NCBI GenBank assembly: GCA_018303655.1
Contig: JAGVXT010000012.1
Span: 17,996-81,995 of the forward strand
Source: Candidatus Woesearchaeota archaeon
Lineage (GTDB): Archaea; Nanobdellota; Nanobdellia; Woesearchaeales; GW2011-AR4
Reading direction: 5' to 3'
DNA: 64,000 nucleotides
Shown: piece after piece, positions 15,307 through 48,412 of the stretch
Layout of the letters: each line of letters begins with the position of its first letter
How positions within the stretch are numbered: position 1 is the first letter of the stretch
Translations under genes and position numbers: made by a program
Notes under the pieces: model-generated
Database searches by the model: none
What the model was told of the DNA's origin: nothing
What the model saw: only the letters and a program-made list of their open reading frames with translations

Positions 15307-17302
<1,996 letters not shown>

Positions 17303-17420: not shown

Positions 17421-17466
17421 AAAAGCGGTTTACTTTCTGCACTTTGCAGCCAAAAGTCGCTCTCGT
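17421..17466 (+). repeat. bipartite dispersed element, copy 1
   Basis: AAAAGCGGTTTACTT-tctgcactttgcagcc-AAAAGTCGCTCTCGT followed by a T-rich run. It lies downstream of a GC-rich island (17335-17400). Confidence 0.7.
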
Positions 17467-17530
17467 TTTATTGATATTTTATTAATTGTTGTTTTATAAT
17501 TTGAATGATTTTTTAATTACTGAAACATAA

Positions 17531-24680: not shown

Positions 24681-25571
24681 CTATGGTTTGGTCAGCACAA
24701 CAACTTCCCCCTCATCATCAATCAAGATAGAATGCTCTGCCTGGGTTACGATGCCTTTATTGACCTCAACTAATGGCGGAAACTGGTGGATCATGCCAAG
24801 CTGCGTTAATTCCCTTAATGCAAAGTTTGCCTTTGCCCCGAATTTTCTTGTAAGCCATCTTTTTGCAAACGGCAATCTTTCATATGTTTCAATTTCCTTC
24901 AAAACTTCCCTTGTTATCGGGCTTCTTACAGGCCTTTTATGCTCGAGCATGAATACAGTCGGCATGCCGCTGTCAACAACAACCCCAGAGCCTGTTGTTG
25001 CAAACGGCTCTACTGCAAAAGCCATTCCTTTCTGCAGCTTTGTTTTATTTCCATCATCAATGTTTGGAATTGTCGGCTTTGTGTGTATGCTGTACAAATC
25101 CAACCCGTGCCCTGATAAATTCCTTACAGGATTGTACCCGTAGCTTTTGATTGTGTCATTTATTATTTTTCCAATTTCCCTTAACTCTGTGCCAACATTT
25201 ATTATCTTTAATGCTTCTTCCAATGCCTTCTGCGCAGCCCTGACCAGGCCATTGTACTTTCCCAATAAATCAATTGTGTACGCATTGTCGCCGATTGCGC
25301 CATCAACATGAACCCCTAAATCCAAACTTACAACCTGCTCGTCAAAAACGGTTTTGTCATCTTCTTCCACGCAGAAATGGGCAGCAATCTCGTTGCATGA
25401 AACCTGGACAGGAAATGCCGGCTTTCCCCCCAATTCATAAATTTTTTTTTCAATCAATTCTGTTGCTTCAAGAATTGAATTGCCCTTTTTGATTAATGAT
25501 TTCCCGTACTCTAGGGCTTCAGCGGATATTCTGCCTGCTTTGATGTAGTTTTGCTTTGTTTGTATATCCAT
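24681..25571 (-). CDS. map: type II methionine aminopeptidase
   Basis: 296 aa. Pita-bread fold landmarks with the archaeal-type insertion: FPVQVS.NE.AAH, DLGVHVDG, GHG and AQAEHSILI. Confidence 0.85.
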   Translation of the reverse strand: MDIQTKQNYIKAGRISAEALEYGKSLIKKGNSILEATELIEKKIYELGGKPAFPVQVSCNEIAAHFCVEEDDKTVFDEQVVSLDLGVHVDGAIGDNAYTIDLLGKYNGLVRAAQKALEEALKIINVGTELREIGKIINDTIKSYGYNPVRNLSGHGLDLYSIHTKPTIPNIDDGNKTKLQKGMAFAVEPFATTGSGVVVDSGMPTVFMLEHKRPVRSPITREVLKEIETYERLPFAKRWLTRKFGAKANFALRELTQLGMIHQFPPLVEVNKGIVTQAEHSILIDDEGEVVVLTKP

Positions 25572-25611
25572 TAGAAAAAAAATTGAAATGGATTATTTAA
25601 AGGTTTCCGCC

Positions 25612-25625
25612 GAAAGATTTATATA
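25612..25625 (+). promoter_or_regulatory. BRE/TATA (GAAAGATTTATATA)
   Basis: The same 14-mer occurs upstream of vapB. It lies about 40 nt before ATG 25667. Confidence 0.4.
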
Positions 25626-25666
25626 CTTAATATATAATAAGTATATAAGTGATTATATGACTGAAG

Positions 25667-25884
25667 TTACGACAATTCAGCTGGACAAGAGAATTGTGGC
25701 AAAGCTCAAGAAAGCCAAGGAGCACCCTAGGCAGACTTATAATGAACTTCTTGACAAGGCGGTTTCTGTCTTTATGGCAGTCAAAAAAGTAAATAGCTAT
25801 GACGAATTCCTTCATAAGGTGCAACAGCCGAAAATGAGGGAATTATGGGGCAATAAGGAAGACGAGGCATGGGAGAGTGTATAA
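25667..25884 (+). CDS. putative antitoxin partner of the MazF/PemK-like toxin
   Basis: Reads MTEVTTIQLDKRIVAKLKKAKEHPRQTYNELLDKAV. It overlaps the downstream toxin by 8 nt. ORF track start is 25588. Confidence 0.55.
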
Positions 25885-26182
25885 TGCAGGGGACGTGATT
25901 CTCGCACAGGTACAATTTACAGACACTTTTGAGGTTAAAACAAGGCCTGCTGTAGTTCTTTTTGAAGAGTATGGCAATATAGTAGTTGCTGGCGTCACAA
26001 GCAACACTGAAATGGAAGGCATACCATTGACAAAAAAAGAAGGCGCTGTAAAGGACAGCATCATAAAAGTAAATTATATCTTTACAATCTCGGAAAAAAT
26101 GGTGAAAAAAAGATTGTTTTCTTTATCTCAAGAGAAGAAAAGGATTTTGATATCTGAATTCGTAAAAAGGCTGAATAAATAA
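25877..26182 (+). CDS. PemK/MazF-like toxin
   Basis: 101 aa. GDVILAQVQFTD....KTRPAVVL....NIVVAGVTSN is typical of the family. Confidence 0.65.
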   Translation: MYNAGDVILAQVQFTDTFEVKTRPAVVLFEEYGNIVVAGVTSNTEMEGIPLTKKEGAVKDSIIKVNYIFTISEKMVKKRLFSLSQEKKRILISEFVKRLNK

Positions 26183-26478
26183 GCATATTTATGGGTTTTT
26201 GGGGATGGAGTAAGTTGGTTGAAAGTTCATTTAACGTACAATTTTAAGTGAGGTTTTTCTCCTCGAAAAATTCCCCTCGTGAGCAAAATTGAGGCAACCC
26301 ACAAGTTTCAGAGCGGATAAATTTTGTAGAGCTGAAAAAATGTTAGGTTGAGTGAGCGATGCCTTTGATGGCTGAGCGAACGAACTGGCTTTGATGCCCG
26401 ATTTCGTGAGGATTTAGTTGTGAGTGTCGCCCAAATCCGCTTTGATGCGGATTTGGATTTACTTCTCATATTATTTTA

Positions 26479-26541
26479 GTGGAAGAGCGGCTTTTTGTAA
26501 AAAAGTTTCTGAAACTAGTTCGAAAACCCGCCGTAAATCCC
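26479..26541 (-). repeat. left inverted copy of the island-flanking element
   Basis: The reverse complement reads GGGATTTACG-GCGGGTTTTCGAA-CTAGTTTCAGAAAC...ACAAAAAGCCGCTCTTCCAC. The first 23 nt are identical to the split right copy at 31015-31055. Confidence 0.75.
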
Positions 26542-26591
26542 AGTTGTTGCTGTAGTATATCTGTAGCAAATAGCACTGGACATTTGTGGGC

Positions 26592-26603
26592 AAGGTTTAT
26601 AAA
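26592..26603 (+). promoter_or_regulatory. TATA-like box (AAGGTTTATAAA) and SD (AGGGAG, 26631-26636) for the restriction gene
   Basis: Both lie upstream of ATG 26641. Confidence 0.4.
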
Positions 26604-26640
26604 TCAGTTCCATATAATATATCAAAATAAAGGGAGTGAA

Positions 26641-27498
26641 ATGCCAAACAATGTTTTAAGAGGAATTTTGAATATAGCTTCATTTAAGAATAATAACCTT
26701 AAAAGCTATGCTTCTACTTACTTAAACAGGATTAACGCAGTTGGAGAGCAATTAGAATTTTATGTAAAAGACGCCATTGCAACATCTTTTAAGCTACCTT
26801 ATGATAAAAAGCCGGAAGTATATTCTAAAGTATTTTCTTGGCTCGGAACCCAAAACCATCCGCCAGACATTATCATAAAAAATGGTGATGCTTTTGAGAT
26901 TAAAAAGATTGAAACCATAAAAGGCTCACTTCAATTAAACAGCTCTTCTCCAAAAAATAAGCTTCTTGCCACCGATTCTAGGATAACGGCAGACTGCAAA
27001 AAATGCGATGGCGGAAATTGGAAAGAAAAAGACTTATTTTATGTGATTGGGAATGCAAAAGGTGGGGAAATAAGCTACTTATTTTTTGTGCATGGGGTTT
27101 GCTATGCTGCTGACCATAAAGTTTATGAAAAAATCCACGAGCCTATAAAAAAAGAAGTGGATTCCGTCCTTGATTCTCTTGGATTGGAAAAAGGCGAAAC
27201 TGTAGAATTGGGCAAAGTTAGGAGAGTTGACCCGCTTGGAATAACTGAATTGAGAATAAGGGGAATGTGGAGCATAGAAAATCCACTTAATGTTTATGAT
27301 GGATTGTGCGAGCTTGGAAAAAATAAATTTCATCTTTTTGCCTTATTGAGCAAAGAGAAATATCTTTCTTACTCTAAAGAAGACATCAAAGAATTAGAAT
27401 CCCATAAAGAAATTTCCGTTAAAGACGTAAAAATCAAAAGCCCAAATAACCCTGCTAATCTAATGGAGGCAAAGCTAATAGCTTTTGTAATAAAATGA
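26641..27498 (+). CDS. type II restriction endonuclease candidate (PD-(D/E)xK)
   Basis: 285 aa counted from MPNNVL. HPPDIIIKNGDAFEIKK fits PD...ExK. It overlaps the m5C methyltransferase start by 4 nt. The ORF-track N-terminal extension (26479-26640) runs through the repeat element. Confidence 0.65.
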   Translation: MPNNVLRGILNIASFKNNNLKSYASTYLNRINAVGEQLEFYVKDAIATSFKLPYDKKPEVYSKVFSWLGTQNHPPDIIIKNGDAFEIKKIETIKGSLQLNSSSPKNKLLATDSRITADCKKCDGGNWKEKDLFYVIGNAKGGEISYLFFVHGVCYAADHKVYEKIHEPIKKEVDSVLDSLGLEKGETVELGKVRRVDPLGITELRIRGMWSIENPLNVYDGLCELGKNKFHLFALLSKEKYLSYSKEDIKELESHKEISVKDVKIKSPNNPANLMEAKLIAFVIK

Positions 27499-28535
27499 AA
27501 ATTGCATCATTTTTTTCAGGAGCCGGAGGATTAGATTTAGGATTTACTAATGCAGGCTTTAAGCTAGCTTTTGCAAATGACAATTGGGAAGGCTGCTGGG
27601 AAACATTTGAGAAAAACCATAAAATACCTATTAATAAAAAATCAATTACTAAAATAAAGGCTGATGAAGTTCCTGATGTAGTAGGATTTGTTGGAGGGCC
27701 GCCTTGCCAAAGCTGGAGCCTTGCAGGAGCCATGAGGGGCATAAATGACCCAAGAGGCCAAGTTTTTTATGATTATGTTAGGCTTATTAAAGAAAAAAAG
27801 CCATCATTCTTTTTAGCTGAAAACGTTGCAGGGCTATTATCAAGTAGCCACTATCTCGAATTTATGAAAATTGTTAATGCTTTTAAGCAAATTGGGTATA
27901 ATGTTTCCTTTAAACTGCTTGATGCGAATGATTATGGAGTTCCGCAAGAGAGAAAAAGGGTAATTGTAGTGGGCTACCATGAGAAATTAGGAAAAAAATT
28001 TGAGTTTCCAAGCCCATTAAGCCAGAAGCCAGCACTAAAAGATGCAATCGCCGATTTGCCAGAGGCAATTCCAGCAAGCCATTACAATAAAACCAACGGA
28101 AAATTAGAAATTTATAACCATGAGTACATGAATGGGGGATTTTCTACTATTTATATGTCAAGAAATAGGGTACGAAGCTGGAATGAGCCTTCATTTACAA
28201 TTCAGGCAGGAGGTCGGCATGCTCCTTGCCACCCCAAAGCCCCAAAAATGAGGCTTATAGGGAAAGATAAAAGAGAATTTATTAAAGGCAAAGAGAATCT
28301 TTATAGAAGATTGTCAGTAAGGGAATGTGCCAGAATACAAACCTTTCCAGATGATTTTGTATTTTATTATAGCAATGTTGCAGATGGGTATAAGATGATA
28401 GGCAATGCCGTCCCTGTTAAATTGGCTGAAGCGCTGGCAAAGCAAATTATGAAAGACCTTAAAGGAATAAGACCACAAGAAAAATGGCAGACAAGTTCAG
28501 CAAAGCAAAAAGAAGCGCAATTATGTCCAGAATAA
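27495..28535 (+). CDS. DNA (cytosine-5)-methyltransferase, M.HaeIII-like (predicted GGCC)
   Basis: Carries FSGAGGLDLGF, GGPPCQSWS, ENV, QERKRV and GNAVPV. By my recollection the variable target-recognition region (NHEY..STI.MSRNRVR.WNEP.FT.QA.GR....HP.AP.M....GKE.LYRRL.VRECAR.Q.FPDDF) follows M.HaeIII closely. Confidence 0.85.
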   Translation: MKIASFFSGAGGLDLGFTNAGFKLAFANDNWEGCWETFEKNHKIPINKKSITKIKADEVPDVVGFVGGPPCQSWSLAGAMRGINDPRGQVFYDYVRLIKEKKPSFFLAENVAGLLSSSHYLEFMKIVNAFKQIGYNVSFKLLDANDYGVPQERKRVIVVGYHEKLGKKFEFPSPLSQKPALKDAIADLPEAIPASHYNKTNGKLEIYNHEYMNGGFSTIYMSRNRVRSWNEPSFTIQAGGRHAPCHPKAPKMRLIGKDKREFIKGKENLYRRLSVRECARIQTFPDDFVFYYSNVADGYKMIGNAVPVKLAEALAKQIMKDLKGIRPQEKWQTSSAKQKEAQLCPE

Positions 28536-28885
28536 GGTCTAAAAATACTTCTTTAGAGGTTGAGTTCAGAAAACTCCTTTGGAAAAATGGGCTTGGTCAC
28601 TATCGCATTCATTATAACTTGCCTGGAAAGCCCGATATTGTTTATGTTTCCAAAAAAATTGTAGTTTTTCTTGATGGCGACTTTTGGCATGGCTACAATT
28701 GGAAAAAACTAGGCAAAGTTCCGCCTAGAAAGTACTGGCAGAAGAAAATACAGAAAAACATCGACAGAGCGAAAAAGTATAATAAACTGCTGAGAAAAGA
28801 TGGGTGGAAAGTTTTACGATTTTGGGAGCATGATGTGAAGAAAAATTCAAATAGTTGTATTAAACATATAATAGATAGATATTAA
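28484..28885 (+). CDS. vsr: very-short-patch repair endonuclease
   Basis: RSAIMSRIRSKNTSLE and PDIVY....VVFLDGDFWHG. It overlaps the methyltransferase 3' end in another frame. Confidence 0.8.
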   Translation: MADKFSKAKRSAIMSRIRSKNTSLEVEFRKLLWKNGLGHYRIHYNLPGKPDIVYVSKKIVVFLDGDFWHGYNWKKLGKVPPRKYWQKKIQKNIDRAKKYNKLLRKDGWKVLRFWEHDVKKNSNSCIKHIIDRY

Positions 28886-29123
28886 TAAATTCAGTAAAAC
28901 TATTATTATATAAAACAGATATATTAAGCATTTATATATCAAAATTTCTAATAATAAGTATAAATAATCAATATTTAAAATGTTGATAACTCACTTAAAT
29001 ATCTAACTTAAGACTATAAAATGAATAGATTTTTAAATAAGGAGTATACATCATAGAAAATAATAGTTATATTGAACTAATTATTTAATTTTAATATCTC
29101 GTCTATAAATTCAGCAAAAGCAT

Positions 29124-29139
29124 ACATTTATATATAAAA
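29124..29139 (+). promoter_or_regulatory. TATA-like box (ACATTTATATATAAAA) and SD (AAGGTGG, 29158-29164) of the three-gene cassette
   Basis: Both lie in the 285-nt AT-rich spacer before ATG 29171. Confidence 0.4.
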
Positions 29140-29170
29140 TATCCTTACCATATATCTAAGGTGGTTTTAA

Positions 29171-29737
29171 ATGATAGATGAATTAAAAGAAAAAATTAAA
29201 CTTGCTCAGCAAGCAGTTGAAGATGTAATTGACCCTAAGCTTAAAGAGAAAGCTTTCGAGGTTGTATTAAATAATTTGATTAGTGGAAATAATCAACTAG
29301 TGCCAATACTACAAACTGATAGCCAGCCGATTCAAACTCAAAATAAGGTTACGAACGACAAGCTGTACAATTTTCTTAATGCAACAAACGTTACAGAACA
29401 ACAAATAACAAATATTTTTGATTTAGATGGGGAGTCAATTCGAATTATAGGGGCCATTCCTGGTAATACTGACAGCAAAAAGCAAAGAAATGCTACTTTA
29501 ATTTTGCTTACTGCGAAACATTATATAAAAAACGAAAGGGAGATTAATGTACCAGAACTTAAAAAAACACTAGAAGATTTAGGTATCAGATCATTGGTAA
29601 ATTTATCCACTAACCTTAAAGGCTTTGAGAATTTTATAATAATGAAGGGGAGTAAAGGTAGTAAGAGCACTTCTTACAGGATTACAAATCCGGGTGTAAC
29701 CCAAGGAGTCGAACTGATAAAGGGAATGGTGGCATAA
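29171..29737 (+). CDS. unknown protein A (N-terminal helix, Q/N linker, wHTH-like C-terminus)
   Basis: 188 aa. The N-terminus (AVEDVIDPKLKEKAFEVVLNNLISG) is paralogous to protein B. The C-terminus (VPELKKTLEDLGI...SYRITNPG) looks like a winged helix. Confidence 0.6.
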   Translation: MIDELKEKIKLAQQAVEDVIDPKLKEKAFEVVLNNLISGNNQLVPILQTDSQPIQTQNKVTNDKLYNFLNATNVTEQQITNIFDLDGESIRIIGAIPGNTDSKKQRNATLILLTAKHYIKNEREINVPELKKTLEDLGIRSLVNLSTNLKGFENFIIMKGSKGSKSTSYRITNPGVTQGVELIKGMVA

Positions 29738-29738
29738 A

Positions 29739-30230
29739 ATGAATAAAGAAGAGATAGGGGAAATATTAAAACAAGCTGAAAAACTAGTTGCTGATAATAT
29801 AAAAGATGAGTCACTAAAAGTAAAAGCATTTGAGTTGGCTTATAATGAGCTGTTGGGTAAAATAATGCCTCCTGTTACTAAAGAAAGCCATACATTGACT
29901 TCCGGACAACACCAGCAAGTTAAAAAATCAGAATCTATTGTTGAACATTGTAAACGATTTAAGATAAATAACGAAATAGATAGGACCCTAATATTTGCCT
30001 CATTTCTTGAGAAACAAGAAGGGCAAAATTATTTCATCACAAAAAATATTCAAGATTGTTATTTTAAGGCAAAGGAAAAACAACCACCCAACATTCCTGA
30101 TAAAATTAGTAAAAACATCAGCAAGGGTTTTATTATGGAGTCAAATGAAAAACCTAAATCTGGGAAAGGGTATGTGCTAACAAGAACTGGCGAGGAAGAA
30201 GTTAAAAAGCTGGAACTTAAAAATGAATGA
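29739..30230 (+). CDS. unknown protein B, paralog of protein A
   Basis: 163 aa. LVADNIKDESLKVKAFELAYNELLGK matches the A N-terminus. The C-terminus (..GYVLTRTGEEEV) is wHTH-like. It starts 1 nt after the A stop. Confidence 0.6.
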   Translation: MNKEEIGEILKQAEKLVADNIKDESLKVKAFELAYNELLGKIMPPVTKESHTLTSGQHQQVKKSESIVEHCKRFKINNEIDRTLIFASFLEKQEGQNYFITKNIQDCYFKAKEKQPPNIPDKISKNISKGFIMESNEKPKSGKGYVLTRTGEEEVKKLELKNE

Positions 30231-30978
30231 AATAAAACAAATTCTTTCAGAAAAAATAGACCCAGTTATCACGGATAAGCTTATAGCTGAGTATATAAAT
30301 GTAAAAAAATATCATTACTATAATGATATTGAAAAAACAATTCTTCACGGAGCAAGATTTGCAGAATGTTCTTTAGCCGCTATAAAAAATCAATTAGACT
30401 CTAGCATTGTAAATCTAAATGAGTTACATTTTGAAGCAGTGTTTAATGAAATCACTTCAAAACCAAAGAAAAATTCAAACGATGAGCAATTGGCCCTTGT
30501 TATTCCCAATGTTTTAAAGACTATATATTCAATAAGAAATAAAAAAAGAGTTACTCATATGAAGGATGCTTTACCTGATAAGATTGATGCAGAATATGTT
30601 TTATCTGCATGTAACTGGACAATTTCACAATTTTTAATAATTATCAAAGGTATGGATGTCAATTTAATCTATAGATTACTAGAATCAATAAATTCAAAAC
30701 AAATACCCATAATAGAAGAATTTGAAAAGAATGAGATTAAAGTACTCACTTCTGATTTAAGTTTTAAGGACGAATTATTGGTGGTGTTATACAAATATTC
30801 AAGTAGAATTAGTGTGGCTCAATTAAATTTACTTTTAAAGCCAAAAAATAAATCTTATGTTACTACTAATCTTAGTAGGTTAAACATAGAAAGATTAATT
30901 CAACTTAATAATGATGGAGCAATTATCACAAAGTTAGGCATAGACTACATTGAGTCAAAAGTTCTAGTTATAAAATAA
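30223..30978 (+). CDS. unknown protein C (HEPN-like N-terminal domain plus C-terminal wHTH)
   Basis: 251 aa. GARFAECSLAAIK followed by YSIRNKKRVTH fits the Rx4-6H HEPN signature. The C-terminus (SVAQLNLLL....VTTNLSRLNIERLIQ) is wHTH-like. It overlaps B by 8 nt. Confidence 0.55.
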   Translation: MNEIKQILSEKIDPVITDKLIAEYINVKKYHYYNDIEKTILHGARFAECSLAAIKNQLDSSIVNLNELHFEAVFNEITSKPKKNSNDEQLALVIPNVLKTIYSIRNKKRVTHMKDALPDKIDAEYVLSACNWTISQFLIIIKGMDVNLIYRLLESINSKQIPIIEEFEKNEIKVLTSDLSFKDELLVVLYKYSSRISVAQLNLLLKPKNKSYVTTNLSRLNIERLIQLNNDGAIITKLGIDYIESKVLVIK

Positions 30979-31013
30979 ATTTTGTTATGGGGTTTAACGT
31001 AGGCGACAACAAA

Positions 31014-31118
31014 GGGGATTTACGTTTTAGTATCAACGATAAGCGGGTTTTCGAATTGCATTTAATCCTAGTTTAAGACCTGCGTATAAATTTTCAAATT
31101 ATACGAAAGTTCTTCCAC
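31014..31118 (+). repeat. right inverted copy of the island-flanking element
   Basis: GGGGATTTACG[18-nt insert]GCGGGTTTTCGAA[12-nt insert]CTAGTTTAAGACC...GAAAGTTCTTCCAC. Collinear with the reverse complement of 26479-26541. Confidence 0.75.
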
Positions 31119-31197
31119 GACCTGAAAGGAAAAACCATAATGAAGAAGCGGCACGAACGAACATGTAACACAGGTTTAATGAACTTTCTACAATATT

Positions 31198-33090
31198 TTA
31201 CTTCACCCTAACAGTTTCCAGGTTCCTTGGAGCAACTGTCTCTATCCTGAAGCCCTTGTGTATCGAGCTTGCCAAGTCAAGGCATCTTGAGTTTTCACCG
31301 TGGTTGACAATCACTTTTTTCGGGCGAGGCTCGCATTTTGCAACAAAGTTCATCAGCTGGTTTCTTGAGGAGTGGCCCGAAAACCCTTCCACAGTGTGCA
31401 CTTTCATCTTAATCTGCAGCATTTCCTGCTTGCCCCCATCTGAAAATGTGAATTCACGCTCGCCCATCTGCATCCTTCTCCCCAAAGAGCCGTCGCCTTG
31501 GTAATTTACAAAGCCTATTGAATTCTTCGGATTGTCGCACAAATGCTTCAAATATTCTACAGAAGGGCCTCCGGTAAGCATCCCTGATGTTGCCAAAATC
31601 ACGCAGGGCCCTGTGTTTTCAATGATGTCCATCCTTTCCTTTTGCGAGCCTACTCTTTTAAAAATCTCGTGCAAAAACGGGTTCTGGTCCTTGTGGAAAA
31701 TAAGCTTTCTGACTGAATTATTAAGATATTCAGGATAGGCTGTATGGATTGCAGTAACATCCCAGACCATTCCATCTATGTATACAGGAACGGGCGCCAT
31801 CCTTCCTTCCCTTGCCATCTGCTCGATTGCAAGCATGACCTCTTGCGCCCTTCCGACCCCAAGAGTGGGTATCAAAACCTTTCCTCCCCTTCCAGTTGTC
31901 TCTTGTATAACTTTCATTAGCTCCTCATCAGTTTCCTGGCGATGTGGCATTATGTTGTCCTTGCCGCCGTATGTTGCTTCAAGCATCAAAGTTTCAAGCC
32001 TTGGGAACATTGTGACAGCCGGCTCAAGCAATAATGTCCTTCCATACTTCTGGTCGCCGGAATACAATATGTTATGCAGCCCGTTGCCAACATGCAAATG
32101 CACCATTGCGCTTCCCAGAATATGCCCTGCATTATGCATGGTTATCCTCACATCAGGAGTTACATCGCTGACTTCATCATATTCAAGAGTTATTGTGTGC
32201 TTGACCATTTCCTTGATTTCTTCTGACGTGAATATTGGATCAGTGCCGTCTGCTCTTTGTATTTTTATGTAGTCAAGCAAAAGCAAAGCAGAAACATCTC
32301 TCGTAGGCTCTGTGCAGTACACAGGCCCCCTGTACCCGTATTTGAAAAGGTAAGGTATAAACCCGCAATGGTCAATATGCGCGTGGCTTAGTATGACAGC
32401 GTCAAGATCGTTAATGTTGAATTCAGGAGCGTCAAGATAAGGGTACGGCTTTTCGTCTGATGCAACATTAATCCCGCAGTCCAGCAAAACCCTTGATTCA
32501 GGAGTCTGCAAAAAAATGCAGCTTCTTCCAACTTGGCGCCCGCTTCCAAGGTAGGTCAACCTTATCCATTCATGCTTCTTTTCCCTCCTCCAACCATCAT
32601 AAATCCTGTGGCCGACCTTGTCAAGAAATTTTCTCCTGTAATCGCTGTTCTGGTACAAAACAGCCCTTATGTTTTCAATCAGTTTTGACCTTATTGCGGG
32701 CTTTCTCCTTATCAGCGGCACCCACAATGTCTGCATCCTTATGTCCCTCAAAATCGAGCCCTGCTTGCCTATTGCAAGGCCTGGCTTGTCAGCCTCAACT
32801 ATCACCCTGCTTCTTTGAGAGTCAAAAATGACCTGGTCAACTCCCGCTTCCTCCGGGACTATAGCCCTTATTATCTTTTCAGCCTCCTCCAATTCCATTG
32901 TAATGCTCGGGTCCGGCCTTAATTCAACCCTCTTCTTGATATTGTCCACAATTCTCTTTATAATCCCGTTGTTGTTCAGGAAAAAGTCCTTGTCTTTTGT
33001 GTAGAGGACTATGTTAGCGCCCTCAAAATTCACGTCGCTTATCTTGTTCTCAGGCAGGCTCTTCAGAATTTCCTTTACAATGTCTCCCAT
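31198..33090 (-). CDS. aCPSF1/FttA (KH domains plus beta-CASP metallo-beta-lactamase RNase)
   Basis: 630 aa. N-terminal KH repeats, HAHIDHCG, and beta-CASP motifs through to the C-terminal HGE. Confidence 0.9.
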   Translation of the reverse strand: MGDIVKEILKSLPENKISDVNFEGANIVLYTKDKDFFLNNNGIIKRIVDNIKKRVELRPDPSITMELEEAEKIIRAIVPEEAGVDQVIFDSQRSRVIVEADKPGLAIGKQGSILRDIRMQTLWVPLIRRKPAIRSKLIENIRAVLYQNSDYRRKFLDKVGHRIYDGWRREKKHEWIRLTYLGSGRQVGRSCIFLQTPESRVLLDCGINVASDEKPYPYLDAPEFNINDLDAVILSHAHIDHCGFIPYLFKYGYRGPVYCTEPTRDVSALLLLDYIKIQRADGTDPIFTSEEIKEMVKHTITLEYDEVSDVTPDVRITMHNAGHILGSAMVHLHVGNGLHNILYSGDQKYGRTLLLEPAVTMFPRLETLMLEATYGGKDNIMPHRQETDEELMKVIQETTGRGGKVLIPTLGVGRAQEVMLAIEQMAREGRMAPVPVYIDGMVWDVTAIHTAYPEYLNNSVRKLIFHKDQNPFLHEIFKRVGSQKERMDIIENTGPCVILATSGMLTGGPSVEYLKHLCDNPKNSIGFVNYQGDGSLGRRMQMGEREFTFSDGGKQEMLQIKMKVHTVEGFSGHSSRNQLMNFVAKCEPRPKKVIVNHGENSRCLDLASSIHKGFRIETVAPRNLETVRVK

Positions 33091-33147
33091 TTTAGAATTT
33101 TATTTAATTTCGATTAAGATTTTTATTTAGTTTTTTGTTATAATTAA

Positions 33148-33341
33148 ATCCGTCGCTTCGCGACAATATCCAGGCTCGCCGGTGAGATGCGAAAGCTCGA
33201 GATGCACGCGAGTTTGAGATGCTTGCGAGAGTGGAATGCGAAAGCTTGCTTTCGCTCGCTTATCTTACAAGCAAGCTCGCGTTCAACTCGTGCTCGCAAA
33301 CAACTCTTTCGCTCGCTTATCTACCTGCTCGCCTATGCATC
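33148..33341. other. GC-rich hairpin-dense island (candidate structured RNA or repeat)
   Basis: Hairpins GTCGCttcGCGAC and AGCTTGCTT...AAGCAAGCT. The words GAGATGCGA, GAGATGCAC, GAGATGCTTGCGAG and CGCTCGCTTATCT recur (the last twice). Three overlapping plus-strand ORFs here look spurious. Confidence 0.4.
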
Positions 33342-33441
33342 AAAAGCGGTTTACTATCGAAAATGCAAAGCATTTTCGGAAGTCCCAAAAACCAAAGGTT
33401 TTTGATACTTTCAACACCTTGCTGTCAAAAGTCGCTCTCGT
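33342..33441 (+). repeat. bipartite dispersed element, copy 2 (long insert)
   Basis: AAAAGCGGTTTACTA...[72-nt insert with hairpins CGAAAATGCaaaGCATTTTCG and CAAAAACCaaaGGTTTTTG]...AAAAGTCGCTCTCGT followed by a T-run. Confidence 0.7.
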
Positions 33442-33516
33442 ATTTTTTAATCAAATTTTATTTTAACGGTTTATATAAAATTCAAGCAAAGTTTTATTTA
33501 ATATTTTTCAGAAAAG

Positions 33517-39904: not shown

Positions 39905-40109
39905 AGTATACTGTGTGTATTTTTAATTCTTTTGTTAATCTCAAACCACAACTTTATGATAATCAATCTTGCACCTTCCGCATATTCTTGAGTTCTTCTG
40001 CCTTTCAGTAATCTTAAATTTGAAGAAATTGATGTATCTTTTGCAGAATCTTGTTTTAAAGTAATGGAATTTTATTATTCAATACCCTTTCCCGAACAAA
40101 GCCCATAAT

Positions 40110-40334
40110 TCATTTTGACTCTTCAAATTCTTCCAATGTCAAGCCTGCATCTTTTATTATCCTGCTTAACGTGCCTTTCTTCAATTCAGAATGTAGTGGA
40201 ACTGTAATCTTGATAGTTTTATTACCAACATATTTTTCGAGCCTTACATGTGACCCTTTCTGTCTTGTAGCAATAAAACCAGCTCTCTTTAACCGCTTAA
40301 TAACTTTAATTCCAGAAATGAGGGGAAGCTTCAT
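40110..40334 (-). CDS. hicA: HicA toxin
   Basis: 74 aa. KVIKRLKRAGF...RQKGSHVRL. Confidence 0.75.
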   Translation of the reverse strand: MKLPLISGIKVIKRLKRAGFIATRQKGSHVRLEKYVGNKTIKITVPLHSELKKGTLSRIIKDAGLTLEEFEESK

Positions 40335-40531
40335 ACTGAAACAACAACTTTCTCACCACTAAAATCAATAAGCTCGTTTGTGTCTGCCTCTAAATATAAT
40401 TCAATAGCCTCCTTAATATTCTTAATAGCTTCTTCTTTAGTGTCGCCTTGTGAGATACAGCCAGGCAAAGAAGGCACGTATGCAGTAAAACCCCCTTCTT
40501 CTTGCGGTTCCAAAACAATGGTTAATTTCAT
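40331..40531 (-). CDS. hicB: HicB antitoxin (UPF0150)
   Basis: 66 aa. EEGGFTAYVPSLPGCISQGDTKEEA. It overlaps hicA by 4 nt. Confidence 0.75.
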   Translation of the reverse strand: MKLTIVLEPQEEGGFTAYVPSLPGCISQGDTKEEAIKNIKEAIELYLEADTNELIDFSGEKVVVSV

Positions 40532-40579
40532 ACATTGACCAATAATAAAACTAATATATAAATCTTTGCTGTTTTTATT

Positions 40580-42040
40580 TCAATACCCTTTCCCGAACAC
40601 AGCCCATGACTTGGCTTCTGCATTGCATTGAATGCATTTTCCATGCGCCGATTTCTGCTCGAACGGTATGCACCTGCATGTCGCCCCTTCTGCCTTGTCT
40701 TTTATGTTAGTCTCGCATTCATCCTGGCCGCAGAACAGTGCCTTGGCCATTTTCTTGCTTTTGATTGCATTCAAAAAATCATTGAAATTGTGGACTTCAA
40801 CAATGCTTTTCGCCAGATATTCCTTTGCCTTGTTCAATAAGCTGTCCTGTATGTCATTCAATGTATGCTCAACTTTTTTCTCCAAATCCTTTGTTTTGAT
40901 TGTGATTTTTTCGTTTGTGTCCCTTCTTACCAATACAAGCTGGTCAGCCTCGACATCTTTTGGGCCGATTTCAATTCTCAATGGCACGCCCTTTAATTCC
41001 CACTCATTAAATTTCCATCCTGGTGTATATCCATCCCTGTCGTCAAGCTCAACAGCATGGTTTTTTAATTTTAATTTTTTTGCAATTTCCTTGGCTTTTG
41101 TTATTATTGATTCTTTGTTTTCCCTGAAGACAATCGGAACAACAACCACATGCACTGGAGCTATTCTTGGCGGCATTATCAACCCCTTGTCATCCCCATG
41201 CACCATGACAATCGCTCCTATTGTCCTTGTGCTTAGCCCCCAGGATGTCTGCCATGCAAATTTCTCTTTTTCATCCTTGTCAAGGAATTTAATGCCGAAA
41301 ACCTTTGAGAAATTCTGCCCGAGCAAATGTGATGTGCCCATCTGCAAAGCCTTGCCGTCAGGCATGAAAGCCTCAACGGTTGTTGTATAGTCAGCGCCTG
41401 CAAACTTCTCCTTGTTGGTTTTCTTGCCTGCAATTACCGGAATTGCCATGAAATTTTCAATTAAGTCAACATACTCAAACAGCTGCTGCATCACTTCCTT
41501 TTCTGCATCCTCCTTGGTTGCATGCACAGTATGCCCTTCCTGCCATAAAAACTCTCTCGTTCTTAAGAACGGCTTTGCGTGCTTGAACTCCCACCTTACA
41601 ACAGAATTCCATTGATTCAGCAATAAAGGCAGGTCCCTCCATGAGCGTATCCATTTTGCATAGCTTTCGTACATTATAGTTTCTGAAGTAGGTCTTATGG
41701 CTAGCCTTTCATTCAATTCTGTATTGCCGGCTTTTGTGACCCATGCAACCTCCGGATTAAAGCCTTCAACATGCTCTGCCTCCTTTTTCAGCAGGCTTTC
41801 AGGAATAAACATTGGGAAATAGCAGTTTTTATGCCCGGACCTCTTTATCTTGTCATTGAAGATATTCTTAATTTTCTCCCAGATTGAATAAGAATTTGGC
41901 TTGAAAATGATGCACCCAGACACGGAGCTGTAGTCCATCATGTCTGCCTTCAGCACAACTTGGTTGTACCATTCATTAAAGTCCTCTGATTTTTTTACCG
42001 ATAAGCCAAGCTGCTCATCTTTTCCGTCTTTCTGTTCCAT
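40580..42040 (-). CDS. proS: proline--tRNA ligase (archaeal/eukaryal type)
   Basis: 486 aa. Class II motifs and a C-terminal zinc-binding extension ending in GKGY. Confidence 0.9.
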   Translation of the reverse strand: MEQKDGKDEQLGLSVKKSEDFNEWYNQVVLKADMMDYSSVSGCIIFKPNSYSIWEKIKNIFNDKIKRSGHKNCYFPMFIPESLLKKEAEHVEGFNPEVAWVTKAGNTELNERLAIRPTSETIMYESYAKWIRSWRDLPLLLNQWNSVVRWEFKHAKPFLRTREFLWQEGHTVHATKEDAEKEVMQQLFEYVDLIENFMAIPVIAGKKTNKEKFAGADYTTTVEAFMPDGKALQMGTSHLLGQNFSKVFGIKFLDKDEKEKFAWQTSWGLSTRTIGAIVMVHGDDKGLIMPPRIAPVHVVVVPIVFRENKESIITKAKEIAKKLKLKNHAVELDDRDGYTPGWKFNEWELKGVPLRIEIGPKDVEADQLVLVRRDTNEKITIKTKDLEKKVEHTLNDIQDSLLNKAKEYLAKSIVEVHNFNDFLNAIKSKKMAKALFCGQDECETNIKDKAEGATCRCIPFEQKSAHGKCIQCNAEAKSWAVFGKGY

Positions 42041-48316: not shown

Positions 48317-48323
48317 ATTGTAG

Positions 48324-48412
48324 TGAGCCTGGGGGGATTCGAACCCCCACTGCCCGGTTTCATCTTATTGCAAAGCCGAAGCCGAGTCTGCTATCCATTA
48401 CAGCACAGGCCC
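48324..48412 (-). tRNA. tRNA-Arg(UCG) with a 17-nt canonical intron
   Basis: Acceptor GGGCCTG/CAGGCTC, anticodon stem CTCGG/CCGGG, loop CTTCGG|A (anticodon 48377-48379), intron 48359-48375, T-arm GGGGG-TTCGAAT-CCCCC. Confidence 0.8.

Follow-up and report, generated by a model that had tools for sequence, protein, structure and literature searches.

The stretch analysed here, referred to below as the window, comprises 64,000 nucleotides (nt) of contig JAGVXT010000012.1 from a Candidatus Woesearchaeota archaeon (assembly GCA_018303655.1) and carries, next to a restriction-modification (R-M) system, a compact cassette of three open reading frames (ORFs) that are called A, B, and C. Gene A (29171–29737, + strand) encodes 188 amino acids (aa), gene B (29739–30230, +) encodes 163 aa, and gene C (30223–30978, +) encodes 251 aa; A ends 1 nt ahead of B, and the frames of B and C share 8 nt. 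An AT-rich spacer of 285 nt (28886–29170) separates A from the preceding Vsr gene and holds a TATA-box-like element, TTTATATATAAAA (29127–29139, +), which lies 32–44 nt 5′ of the A start codon and, judging by its sequence, may serve as the promoter, together with a Shine–Dalgarno (SD)-like GGTGG (29160–29164, +) located 6 nt ahead of the same codon. A second GGTGG (29728–29732, +) stands 6 nt ahead of the B start codon. This is the operon that had been described in an earlier prediction made from the letters of the window, and its gap, overlap, spacer, TATA element, and SD were all confirmed in the sequence.

In a variant strain (locus L008), nucleotide identity to the window is 89–94% over A, B, and C (89% in gene A), the TATA and SD elements are kept while the rest of the spacer drifts, and A, B, and C have ratios of nonsynonymous to synonymous substitution rates (dN/dS) of 0.16, 0.18, and 0.20, respectively. 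Thus, A, B, and C are expressed and selected genes, that is, real genes under purifying selection and not chance ORFs. The G+C content is 0.28–0.31 in the cassette, 0.35–0.36 in the R-M genes, and 0.40–0.45 in the flanking housekeeping genes, which encode histidyl-tRNA synthetase and methionine aminopeptidase on one side and aCPSF1 and the proteasome beta subunit on the other, the convergent aCPSF1 gene being reached 220 nt after C. The source record names C 'hypothetical protein J4234_02710' and A 'J4234_02700', and no Rfam match was obtained over positions 25000–33500.

The N-terminal part of protein C (aa 1–160; 30223–30702, +) was delimited as a HEPN-like domain from an AlphaFold2 (AF2) model, Foldseek matches, and topology. 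The model, built on an alignment of 4 sequences (predicted local distance difference test (pLDDT) 77; predicted template modelling score (pTM) 0.60), places helices at residues 14–32, 36–59, 85–110, 116–141, and 146–157, with a short inserted helix at 70–78. The original prediction had drawn attention to GARFAECSLAAIK, which corresponds to aa 43–55, followed by YSIRNKKRVTH (aa 102–112), and had read the latter as an Rx4-6H signature of HEPN RNases. This signature is indeed present, and the alignment of relatives singles out the Rx6H motif R105-N-K-K-R-V-T-H112 (30535–30558, +) as the predicted catalytic centre: among 184 aligned relatives sharing 20–48% identity with C, both R105 and H112 are invariant (184/184 each), the residue after R105 is N or S in 182, and D122, W132, and P95 are found in 183, 182, and 181, respectively. 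The codon of Glu48 (30364–30366, +) falls in helix 2 within a GxFxE motif that continues in the family consensus as Ex3R; of 175 relatives aligned at position 48, 169 have Glu and 5 have Asp, and Arg occupies position 52 in 90 of 176. In the model, R105 is located at the end of helix 85–110, H112 opens a low-confidence loop that leads to the next helix, and E48 lies in helix 2. The RNKKRVTH region is part of a predicted helical bundle, at the usual place of Rx4-6H.

HEPN domains carry a polar residue (N, D, or H) after the Arg of Rx4-6H, have a conserved acidic residue in helix 2, often within Ex3[KR], and frequently accept inserts between helices 2 and 3 (PMC3710099). Protein C agrees with the motif, the topology, and the helix-2 acidic residue set out for HEPN domains in that work, the topology being taken from the model. 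In Foldseek searches of the PDB with the N-terminal domain of C, HEPN proteins were the only recurring matches (probability 0.85–0.98, E 0.24–0.65), including the sacsin HEPN domain 3o10 (probability 0.98, target-length-normalised TM-score (TMt) 0.60, E 0.30), TT1696 1ufb (probability 0.95, E 0.42), the Csm6 proteins 6tug (probability 0.93, E 0.24) and 5yjc (probability ~0.9), and the HEPN-MNT toxins 8xeh (E 0.49) and 8yuf. Motif, modelled topology, and these sub-threshold fold matches make it probable that the N-terminus of C is a HEPN-type domain, although, with no significant match, HEPN membership is unproven.

The C-terminal part of C (30703–30978 including the stop codon, +), delimited by the AF2 model and by profile and Foldseek matches, opens with a conserved beta-hairpin of the form IPIIEEF...VL (aa 162–175; 164–174 in the AF2 model) and continues as a three-helix winged helix (aa 181–250 in the AF2 model). 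The profile of the C family matches a MarR winged helix-turn-helix (wHTH) in the PDB (E 4.7e-4), Foldseek returns wHTH matches to C with probability 1.0, and many C relatives weakly match wHTH models of Pfam; the model, the MarR match, and the Foldseek matches support the wHTH-like C-terminus that had been proposed for this protein. The PADLOC retron model WH_III-A also weakly matches 7 of 62 C relatives (best E 2e-4), and nothing other than weak wHTH models recurs among the PADLOC matches of these relatives.

A word-indexed protein search recovered only 4 relatives of C, 6 of A, and 3 of B, and the family looked tiny. This picture was overturned by an exhaustive profile search with C through 1.84 billion cluster representatives (50% identity), in which at least 1222 clusters match at E ≤1e-3, 838 at ≤1e-10, and 312 at ≤1e-30. 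Proteins of 240–279 aa account for 133 of the best 150 profile matches. A functional name is absent from all ten C clusters examined, and no match above threshold was found for A, B, or C in Pfam, NCBIfam, PADLOC, or PHROGs, which agrees with the earlier prediction, where the architecture was not recognised as any named defence or toxin-antitoxin system. In our reading, C combines a HEPN-type domain with a wHTH and represents an uncatalogued family.

The two genes that precede C encode proteins for which a common N-terminal helix motif and winged-helix-like ends had been predicted. The motif is real, since a hidden Markov model (HMM) of the first ~40 residues recovers A, B, and the orthologues of each, and the winged-helix ends are supported by the AF2 model and Foldseek for A and by the hhalign comparison with the C wHTH for B. 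In the AF2 model of A (pLDDT 78), an N-terminal helical hairpin (aa 1–38, with helices 2–15 and 22–37) is followed by a disordered linker (aa 39–61), a beta-hairpin (83–92), and a winged helix (101–187), and Foldseek relates the protein to MarR, ArsR, ORC-WH, and AspA folds (TMt ~0.55–0.64, E >0.05). Protein B has the N-terminal hairpin motif at aa 1–41 and a wHTH-type C-terminal domain at ~aa 66–160. The N-terminal hairpin is acidic (isoelectric point (pI) 4.8 in A; 4.8–4.9 over both proteins) and the wHTH basic (pI 9.4 in A; 9.1–9.4 over both). Homologues of A range from 88 to 31% identity. A direct BLASTP comparison of A with B alone is not significant (E 0.89), and jackhmmer merges the two families; hhalign aligns the A family (11 sequences) to the B family (18 sequences) over 158 columns covering both ends (probability 88.7%, E 2.6e-6), the B C-terminus to the C wHTH (probability 86.6%, E 4.5e-6), and A to the C wHTH weakly (E 3e-3). 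By these profile comparisons, A and B are distant paralogues and the wHTH of B is homologous to that of C. Neither the A nor the B family has a Pfam match. A possible identity of B as a PD-(D/E)XK nuclease, raised by weak Hjc and DUF2161 matches in 4 of 18 B relatives, was rejected, as the B family has no invariant residue and the region in question aligns with the wHTH wing of A and C.

The features of the three proteins could also be understood without any nuclease. In such a case, C would be a non-catalytic HEPN-like or helical-bundle regulator, comparable to MtlR or to the sacsin HEPN domain, which would bind a ligand or a partner and form an ordinary multi-subunit set of transcription factors with A and B. 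That A, B, and C all end in a wHTH suits this idea, the searches linked C to no catalytic HEPN family at a significant level, and non-catalytic HEPN domains are known (PMC3710099), the Rx4-6H motif having been lost wholly or in part in the substrate-binding HEPN modules of nucleotidyltransferases and in some MtlR proteins (PMC3710099). However, it is in this very loss that these HEPN domains (PMC3710099) differ from the C family, where 184 divergent sequences hardly vary at the R, the H, the polar residue following the R, or the helix-2 Glu. Moreover, the patchy distribution, the low G+C content, and the conflict-gene neighbours are unlike those of housekeeping regulators, and we regard a purely regulatory role of C as improbable.

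The association of C with A- and B-type proteins was followed through 33 distinct loci with a C relative, designated by L numbers, which were gathered by exact-protein look-ups and by scans of GTDB genomes and JGI metagenomes (the GTDB scan, with a narrow back-translated pattern, yielded 3 loci only), and all of whose ORFs were scored against the A, B, and C profiles and that of the N-terminal motif. A gene of the A/B superfamily directly adjoins C in 28 of the 33, usually 5′ of C with frames that overlap or abut, and 3′ of C in L014, L032, and L034. A-type and B-type genes occur together ahead of C in four distinct loci, ordered A-B-C in the window and in L009 and B-A-C in L017 and L018. In L009, the three proteins are 43, 42, and 49% identical to those of the window and the flanking genes are unrelated ones of ATP-grasp-like and sugar-dehydrogenase-like type. 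Loci with the order B-C include L022, L023, L026, L030, L035, L036, L038, L039, and L042, and an A-A-C arrangement occurs in L005. The recurrence of the triad, the adjacency, and the fusions described below bear out the expected co-occurrence of the three proteins beyond the window.

Several components are found fused in single polypeptides: two A-type units form one protein of 247 aa in the L001 group, D-A-A fusions of 466–468 aa are present in L016 and L021, and C is joined to a B-type domain in a protein of 344 aa (P0047). Gene fusions, and adjacency that is kept across shuffled gene orders, are standard comparative-genomics evidence of joint action, and the fusions A-A, D-A-A, and C-B, as deduced from sequence, argue for a physical association of the components. 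The component named D, which occurs in 11 loci, represents another wHTH family; its members are ~140 aa long and give weak matches of the TrmB/MarR type, and hhalign aligns the family to A/B at E 0.004–0.008 with a probability of 5–8%. In addition, 6 loci carry a P-loop ATPase of the DUF87/HerA type, ~480 aa long, with a coiled coil and a C-terminal wHTH, whose gene often overlaps the end of C; it lies directly after C in L005, L035, L036, and L039 and at a distance of one or two genes in L025 and L041, and its best PHROG match is annotated 'terminase large subunit'. Thus, compared with the fused forms and with the loci bearing D or the ATPase, the cassette of the window is the minimal three-gene version.

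Three of the related loci display peculiarities of their own. The ATPase of L041 (2092–4641) is 849 aa long and has an intein-like insert, with LAGLIDADG_3 and weak Intein_splicing matches between the two ATPase halves. In L035 (1339–2765), the ATPase is split into overlapping ORFs of 298 and 187 aa that jointly align to the ATPases of L005 and L036, a split attributable either to a frameshift or to an assembly error. The sequence L010 (1–3546) contains an A-type gene (199 aa, 39% identity to A) without a C gene, next to a tyrosine integrase and to a gene whose product has a PD-(D/E)XK-like C-terminus; thus, the partner family can exist apart from the HEPN protein.

With regard to genomic surroundings, the cassette of the window is preceded by genes for an NgoPII-type restriction endonuclease, a Dcm C5-methyltransferase, and Vsr (26479–28885, +; Pfam E 1.6e-83, 2.4e-96, and 6.2e-24, respectively), and in every contig of the window population it directly follows Vsr and is read in the same direction. 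That R-M loci can harbour HEPN proteins is well established (PMC3710099). The cassette could, therefore, be imagined as an extension of this NgoPII/Dcm/Vsr system, that is, as a regulatory unit resembling a C-protein or as a second line of action that has no autonomy; the constant position behind Vsr would suit such a role, as would the R-M genes that adjoin the module in L028, the Dcm gene near it in L013, and the well-documented presence of HEPN genes inside R-M operons (PMC3710099). Nevertheless, the cassette has a conserved TATA element and SD of its own after the 285-nt spacer, the A-B-C triad of L009 is found between unrelated metabolic genes without any R-M system, and most of the 33 loci have no R-M neighbour, so that a mere appendix of the R-M system appears very improbable.

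Elsewhere, the module is accompanied by an EcoO109I-like restriction endonuclease and an N6/N4 methylase directly 3′ of C (L028), by a tyrosine integrase, a Cas4-like PD-(D/E)XK nuclease, and a Dcm methylase (L013), by a Fic/DOC protein and an integrase (L016), by an nSTAND3 NTPase and an NDT-like protein (L032), by a leucine-rich-repeat (LRR) protein (L031), and by a large serine recombinase (L001). These neighbourhoods are suggestive of conflict or mobile-element islands. The organism labels, where given, are all archaeal (Woesearchaeota, Thermoplasmatales, a 'Methanosarcinales' metagenome-assembled genome, and Micrarchaeota), and the set of genes is found again in dozens of contigs from archaeal metagenomes; a fold search of BFVD gave wHTH matches only. 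The window island had also been described as bounded by repeats, and this was not borne out, as the best flank-to-flank repeats are 11-nt exact ones, a length that is reached in 13% of shuffles. Among the contigs that contain the exact aCPSF1 protein, five listed of 14 are all collinear with the window over the extent that they cover, and no island-free sister contig was found among these five.

The same neighbourhoods bring up the possibility that the module serves a mobile element, its wHTH proteins controlling the transcription, partition, or replication of a plasmid or provirus that has integrated, its ATPase moving or packaging DNA, and C working as an RNA-processing or regulatory factor, with the window holding an ATPase-less remnant. 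Tyrosine integrases adjoin the module in L013 and L016 and the orphan A-type gene in L010, a serine recombinase is near it in L001, and the DUF87 ATPase, placed after C in L005, L035, L036, and L039 and near it in L025 and L041, is matched best by a terminase large subunit in PHROGs. Moreover, two proteins that bind plasmid centromeres, AspA and TubR, are among the Foldseek matches of A, and the families most often encountered in archaeal 'dark matter' islands are HerA-like ATPases, wHTH regulators, and integrases (PMC4158269). However, the ATPase is absent from most loci, A, B, and C have no PHROG match, and the island of the window contains no integrase, replication, or structural gene, while its cassette is intact and under purifying selection. 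A strictly invariant R...H pair of the RNase type would, in addition, be unexpected in a mere regulator. Neither IMG/VR viral contigs nor GenBank phage records nor PLSDB plasmids contain a C relative, which counts against this mobile-element role, and we consider it unlikely.

Taken as a whole, the evidence leads us to favour, with moderate confidence, the view that the cassette is a HEPN-effector conflict module of a toxin-antitoxin (TA)-like or abortive-infection (Abi)-like kind, in which the wHTH partners act as regulators or sensors. The original prediction of a HEPN-effector module is supported by what was found on three points: no profile or structure search assigned A, B, or C to a non-defence function, the triad recurs in other genomes, and the Rx6H region falls in a predicted helical bundle. 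The defence or Abi character and the parts given to A and B come from context. Under this conflict-module interpretation, the cassette would be a small, horizontally mobile, and unnamed unit whose effector is C. The HEPN domain of C would dimerise, as HEPN domains do, and R105 and H112 would form a metal-independent RNase site with the assistance of E48, and the wHTH of C could bind nucleic acid or the partner proteins. A and B, as paralogous partner subunits provided with an acidic hairpin and a basic wHTH like that of C, would assemble with C, silence its RNase, and probably repress the operon's own promoter. Upon a trigger, which might be the entry of foreign DNA or RNA, the disappearance of the element, or a breakdown of the adjacent R-M system, the partners would release or activate C, and RNA cleavage would lead to growth arrest or dormancy. 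Extended versions in some relatives add the HerA/FtsK-type ATPase, with a C-terminal wHTH of its own, and D. That C is an active RNase, that the proteins form a complex, that A and B hold C silent, what sets the module off, and that its phenotype is one of defence or addiction are all matters that we infer.

A number of observations weigh against this conflict-module interpretation. The HEPN assignment is affected by the facts that no Foldseek match to a HEPN protein reaches E ≤1e-3 (best 0.24), that an HMM of the N-terminal domain of C alone finds no relative in the PDB, that the full-length C profile finds only wHTH proteins in that database, and that the Pfam family Abi_C is matched weakly by 3 of 62 C relatives (E ≥0.014) and by 2 of 29 N-terminal domains (E ≥0.0055). 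The loop that contains H112 has a pLDDT below 50, in a C model derived from a 4-sequence alignment. As for the function, the C family is missing from PADLOC, the neighbourhood evidence is anecdotal, with ~10 informative loci, and the integrases and HerA/FtsK-type ATPases of related loci would fit the maintenance of a mobile element as well; the lack of C relatives on viral contigs, in phage records, and on plasmids tells against a horizontally mobile conflict module too. Finally, the C-B fusion and the many wHTH partners fit a labile-antitoxin model poorly.

This last point bears on the role of the partners: the C-B fusion, and the presence of several partners with the effector's own wHTH, are more easily reconciled with a sensor or scaffold role than with a classical antitoxin of the labile kind. 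A bolder proposal can be made along these lines, in which the genes would belong to a widespread, mostly archaeal immune system with a new architecture, made up of three to five proteins (A, B, D, the HEPN effector, and, in complete versions, the HerA-type ATPase) that share one winged-helix module and co-assemble through it or on it, for example on the nucleic acid of an invader, the assembly switching on the HEPN RNase and the partners serving as sensors or scaffolds. We put this forward tentatively, as a possibility that may well not hold.

Among known systems, the cassette invites comparison with the HEPN-MNT type II TA systems (SO_3166/SO_3165; PADLOC candidate PDC-M05, enriched in archaea), which, like the cassette with its predicted HEPN protein C, have a small HEPN protein with Rx4-6H in a compact mobile operon, a partner gene 5′ of the effector, and a common occurrence in archaea and in defence islands. 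Unlike in HEPN-MNT, the partners of the cassette family are one to three wHTH proteins with an acidic hairpin and without a nucleotidyltransferase match, C has a wHTH of its own, and the motif spacing is Rx6H; thus, in the absence of a nucleotidyltransferase partner, neutralisation by AMPylation would be impossible in the cassette. The placement of DNA-binding-type genes first and the coupling of the frames resemble type II TA systems in general, the order being variable elsewhere (A-type gene 3′ in L014, L032, and L034).

The joining of a HEPN domain, predicted in C, to a nucleic-acid-binding or sensor domain is a trait shared with the Abi HEPN proteins (AbiJ/Abi_C, AbiD/F-Abi2, AbiU2, and AbiV) and with EC042_2821 (HEPN, wHTH, and restriction endonuclease domains), whose genes are likewise often located beside R-M systems, and Abi_C is the only recurrent, weak non-wHTH Pfam family among C relatives. 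However, these Abi systems and EC042_2821 are bacterial and mostly of a single gene, C has no restriction endonuclease domain, and the accessory domain of AbiJ is N-terminal to its HEPN domain, whereas in C the HEPN-like domain is N-terminal and the wHTH C-terminal. Membership of C in AbiJ/Abi_C was rejected, given that C of the window has no Abi_C match, its relatives remain far below the Pfam threshold, and the domain order is reversed.

With Csx1/Csm6 (CARF-HTH-HEPN), C has in common the presence of HEPN RNase (in C, predicted) and helix-turn-helix-type modules in one polypeptide; activity is gated there by a sensor module, and Csm6 is among the top Foldseek matches to C. In contrast to these proteins, C has no CARF domain and no CRISPR-Cas neighbourhood, its domain order is the reverse, and its Foldseek E values of 0.24–0.65 are not significant. 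Sir2-HerA and DUF4297-HerA come to mind because six related loci bear the DUF87/HerA-type ATPase beside the predicted effector. They differ from the cassette in that the window has no ATPase, that the ATPase of the relatives is short, with a coiled coil and a C-terminal wHTH, that the predicted effector is of the HEPN type and not a Sir2 or PD-(D/E)XK nuclease, and that extra wHTH proteins are present. Two further candidates were discarded: ABC-3C CTD11 (PF20277), which scores 12.6–14.7 bits against a cut-off of 27.7 in 1 of 29 relatives, covers helices 1–2 and not the motif, and has no ABC ATPase beside it in the window or in the related loci; and a link with retrons (PADLOC WH_III-A and NDT_II-A, Foldseek matches to retron effectors), which reflects generic wHTH similarity with no reverse transcriptase at hand. 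The HEPN families tabulated in PMC3710099 include no archaeal HEPN-wHTH protein of ~250 aa with wHTH partners, and the searched literature on archaeal dark matter and immunity does not describe the cassette; an earlier description elsewhere is possible.

According to a recent survey of 7747 archaeal genomes (PMC12988326), nearly a third of them have no detected defence beyond CRISPR-Cas and R-M, both of which are under-represented in DPANN archaea. Here, a family of at least 1222 clusters that is unnamed in databases has an invariant RNase-type site, conserved partners, and defence or mobile-element neighbourhoods. We regard the cassette as the probable representative of a HEPN family not described before, in which the type of partner and the operon architecture are likewise new, the logic of which is what would be expected of a HEPN module and the function of which we infer. 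If it proves to be a working toxin or Abi module, it would provide both a new HEPN family and a new type of partner, defined by an acidic hairpin and a wHTH shared with the effector, and would help to annotate thousands of 'hypothetical' archaeal genes. The cassette is experimentally tractable, with three genes in 1.8 kb and two obvious point mutants, and the variants with a HerA-type ATPase offer a second handle on the mechanism.

Other features of the window deserve a brief mention. A DUF7557-type antitoxin and a MazF/PemK-like toxin (25588–26182, +; Pfam) occupy the slot between the methionine aminopeptidase and NgoPII genes (25588–26339), and in the sister contig L044, which is otherwise 99.7% identical, a ParE-toxin gene is found in that slot (15793–16179), the similarity breaking at ~26339. 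The slot is a variable TA hot spot beside the conserved block of R-M and A-B-C genes. The NgoPII ORF (26479–27498, 339 aa, GTG start) is probably listed too long, in view of a Pfam match that begins at residue 58 and of the 285 aa assigned by the gene callers of sister contigs, equivalent to an ATG at ~26641. Between MazF and the restriction gene, ~300 nt of non-coding sequence (26183–26480) have a G+C content above that of their surroundings, no Rfam match, and three copies of CTTTGATG in the similar contexts GCCTTTGATGGC, GGCTTTGATGCC, and GCTTTGATGCGG.

The intergenic region between the aCPSF1 and proteasome beta subunit genes (33182–33462) holds a direct repeat of CTTTCGCTCGCTTATCT at 33249 and 33306 and a 16-nt repeat pair at 33182 and 33231, and its 57-nt segment 33406–33462 recurs in inverted orientation, with 79% identity, at 17431–17483. 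A HicB-HicA TA pair (~40110–40531, genes on the - strand, within 40070–40611) is flanked by direct repeats of ~34 nt, TTCAATACCCTTTCCCGAACA[A/C]AGCCCAT, at ~40079–40110 and ~40580–40611, the second of which sits at the 3′ end of the prolyl-tRNA synthetase gene, and the arrangement suggests that a cassette was inserted with duplication of the target. Lastly, ARAGORN reports a tRNA of 90 nt at 48323–48412 (-) with the two-base anticodon call 'tc', which may be an intron-containing archaeal tRNA.

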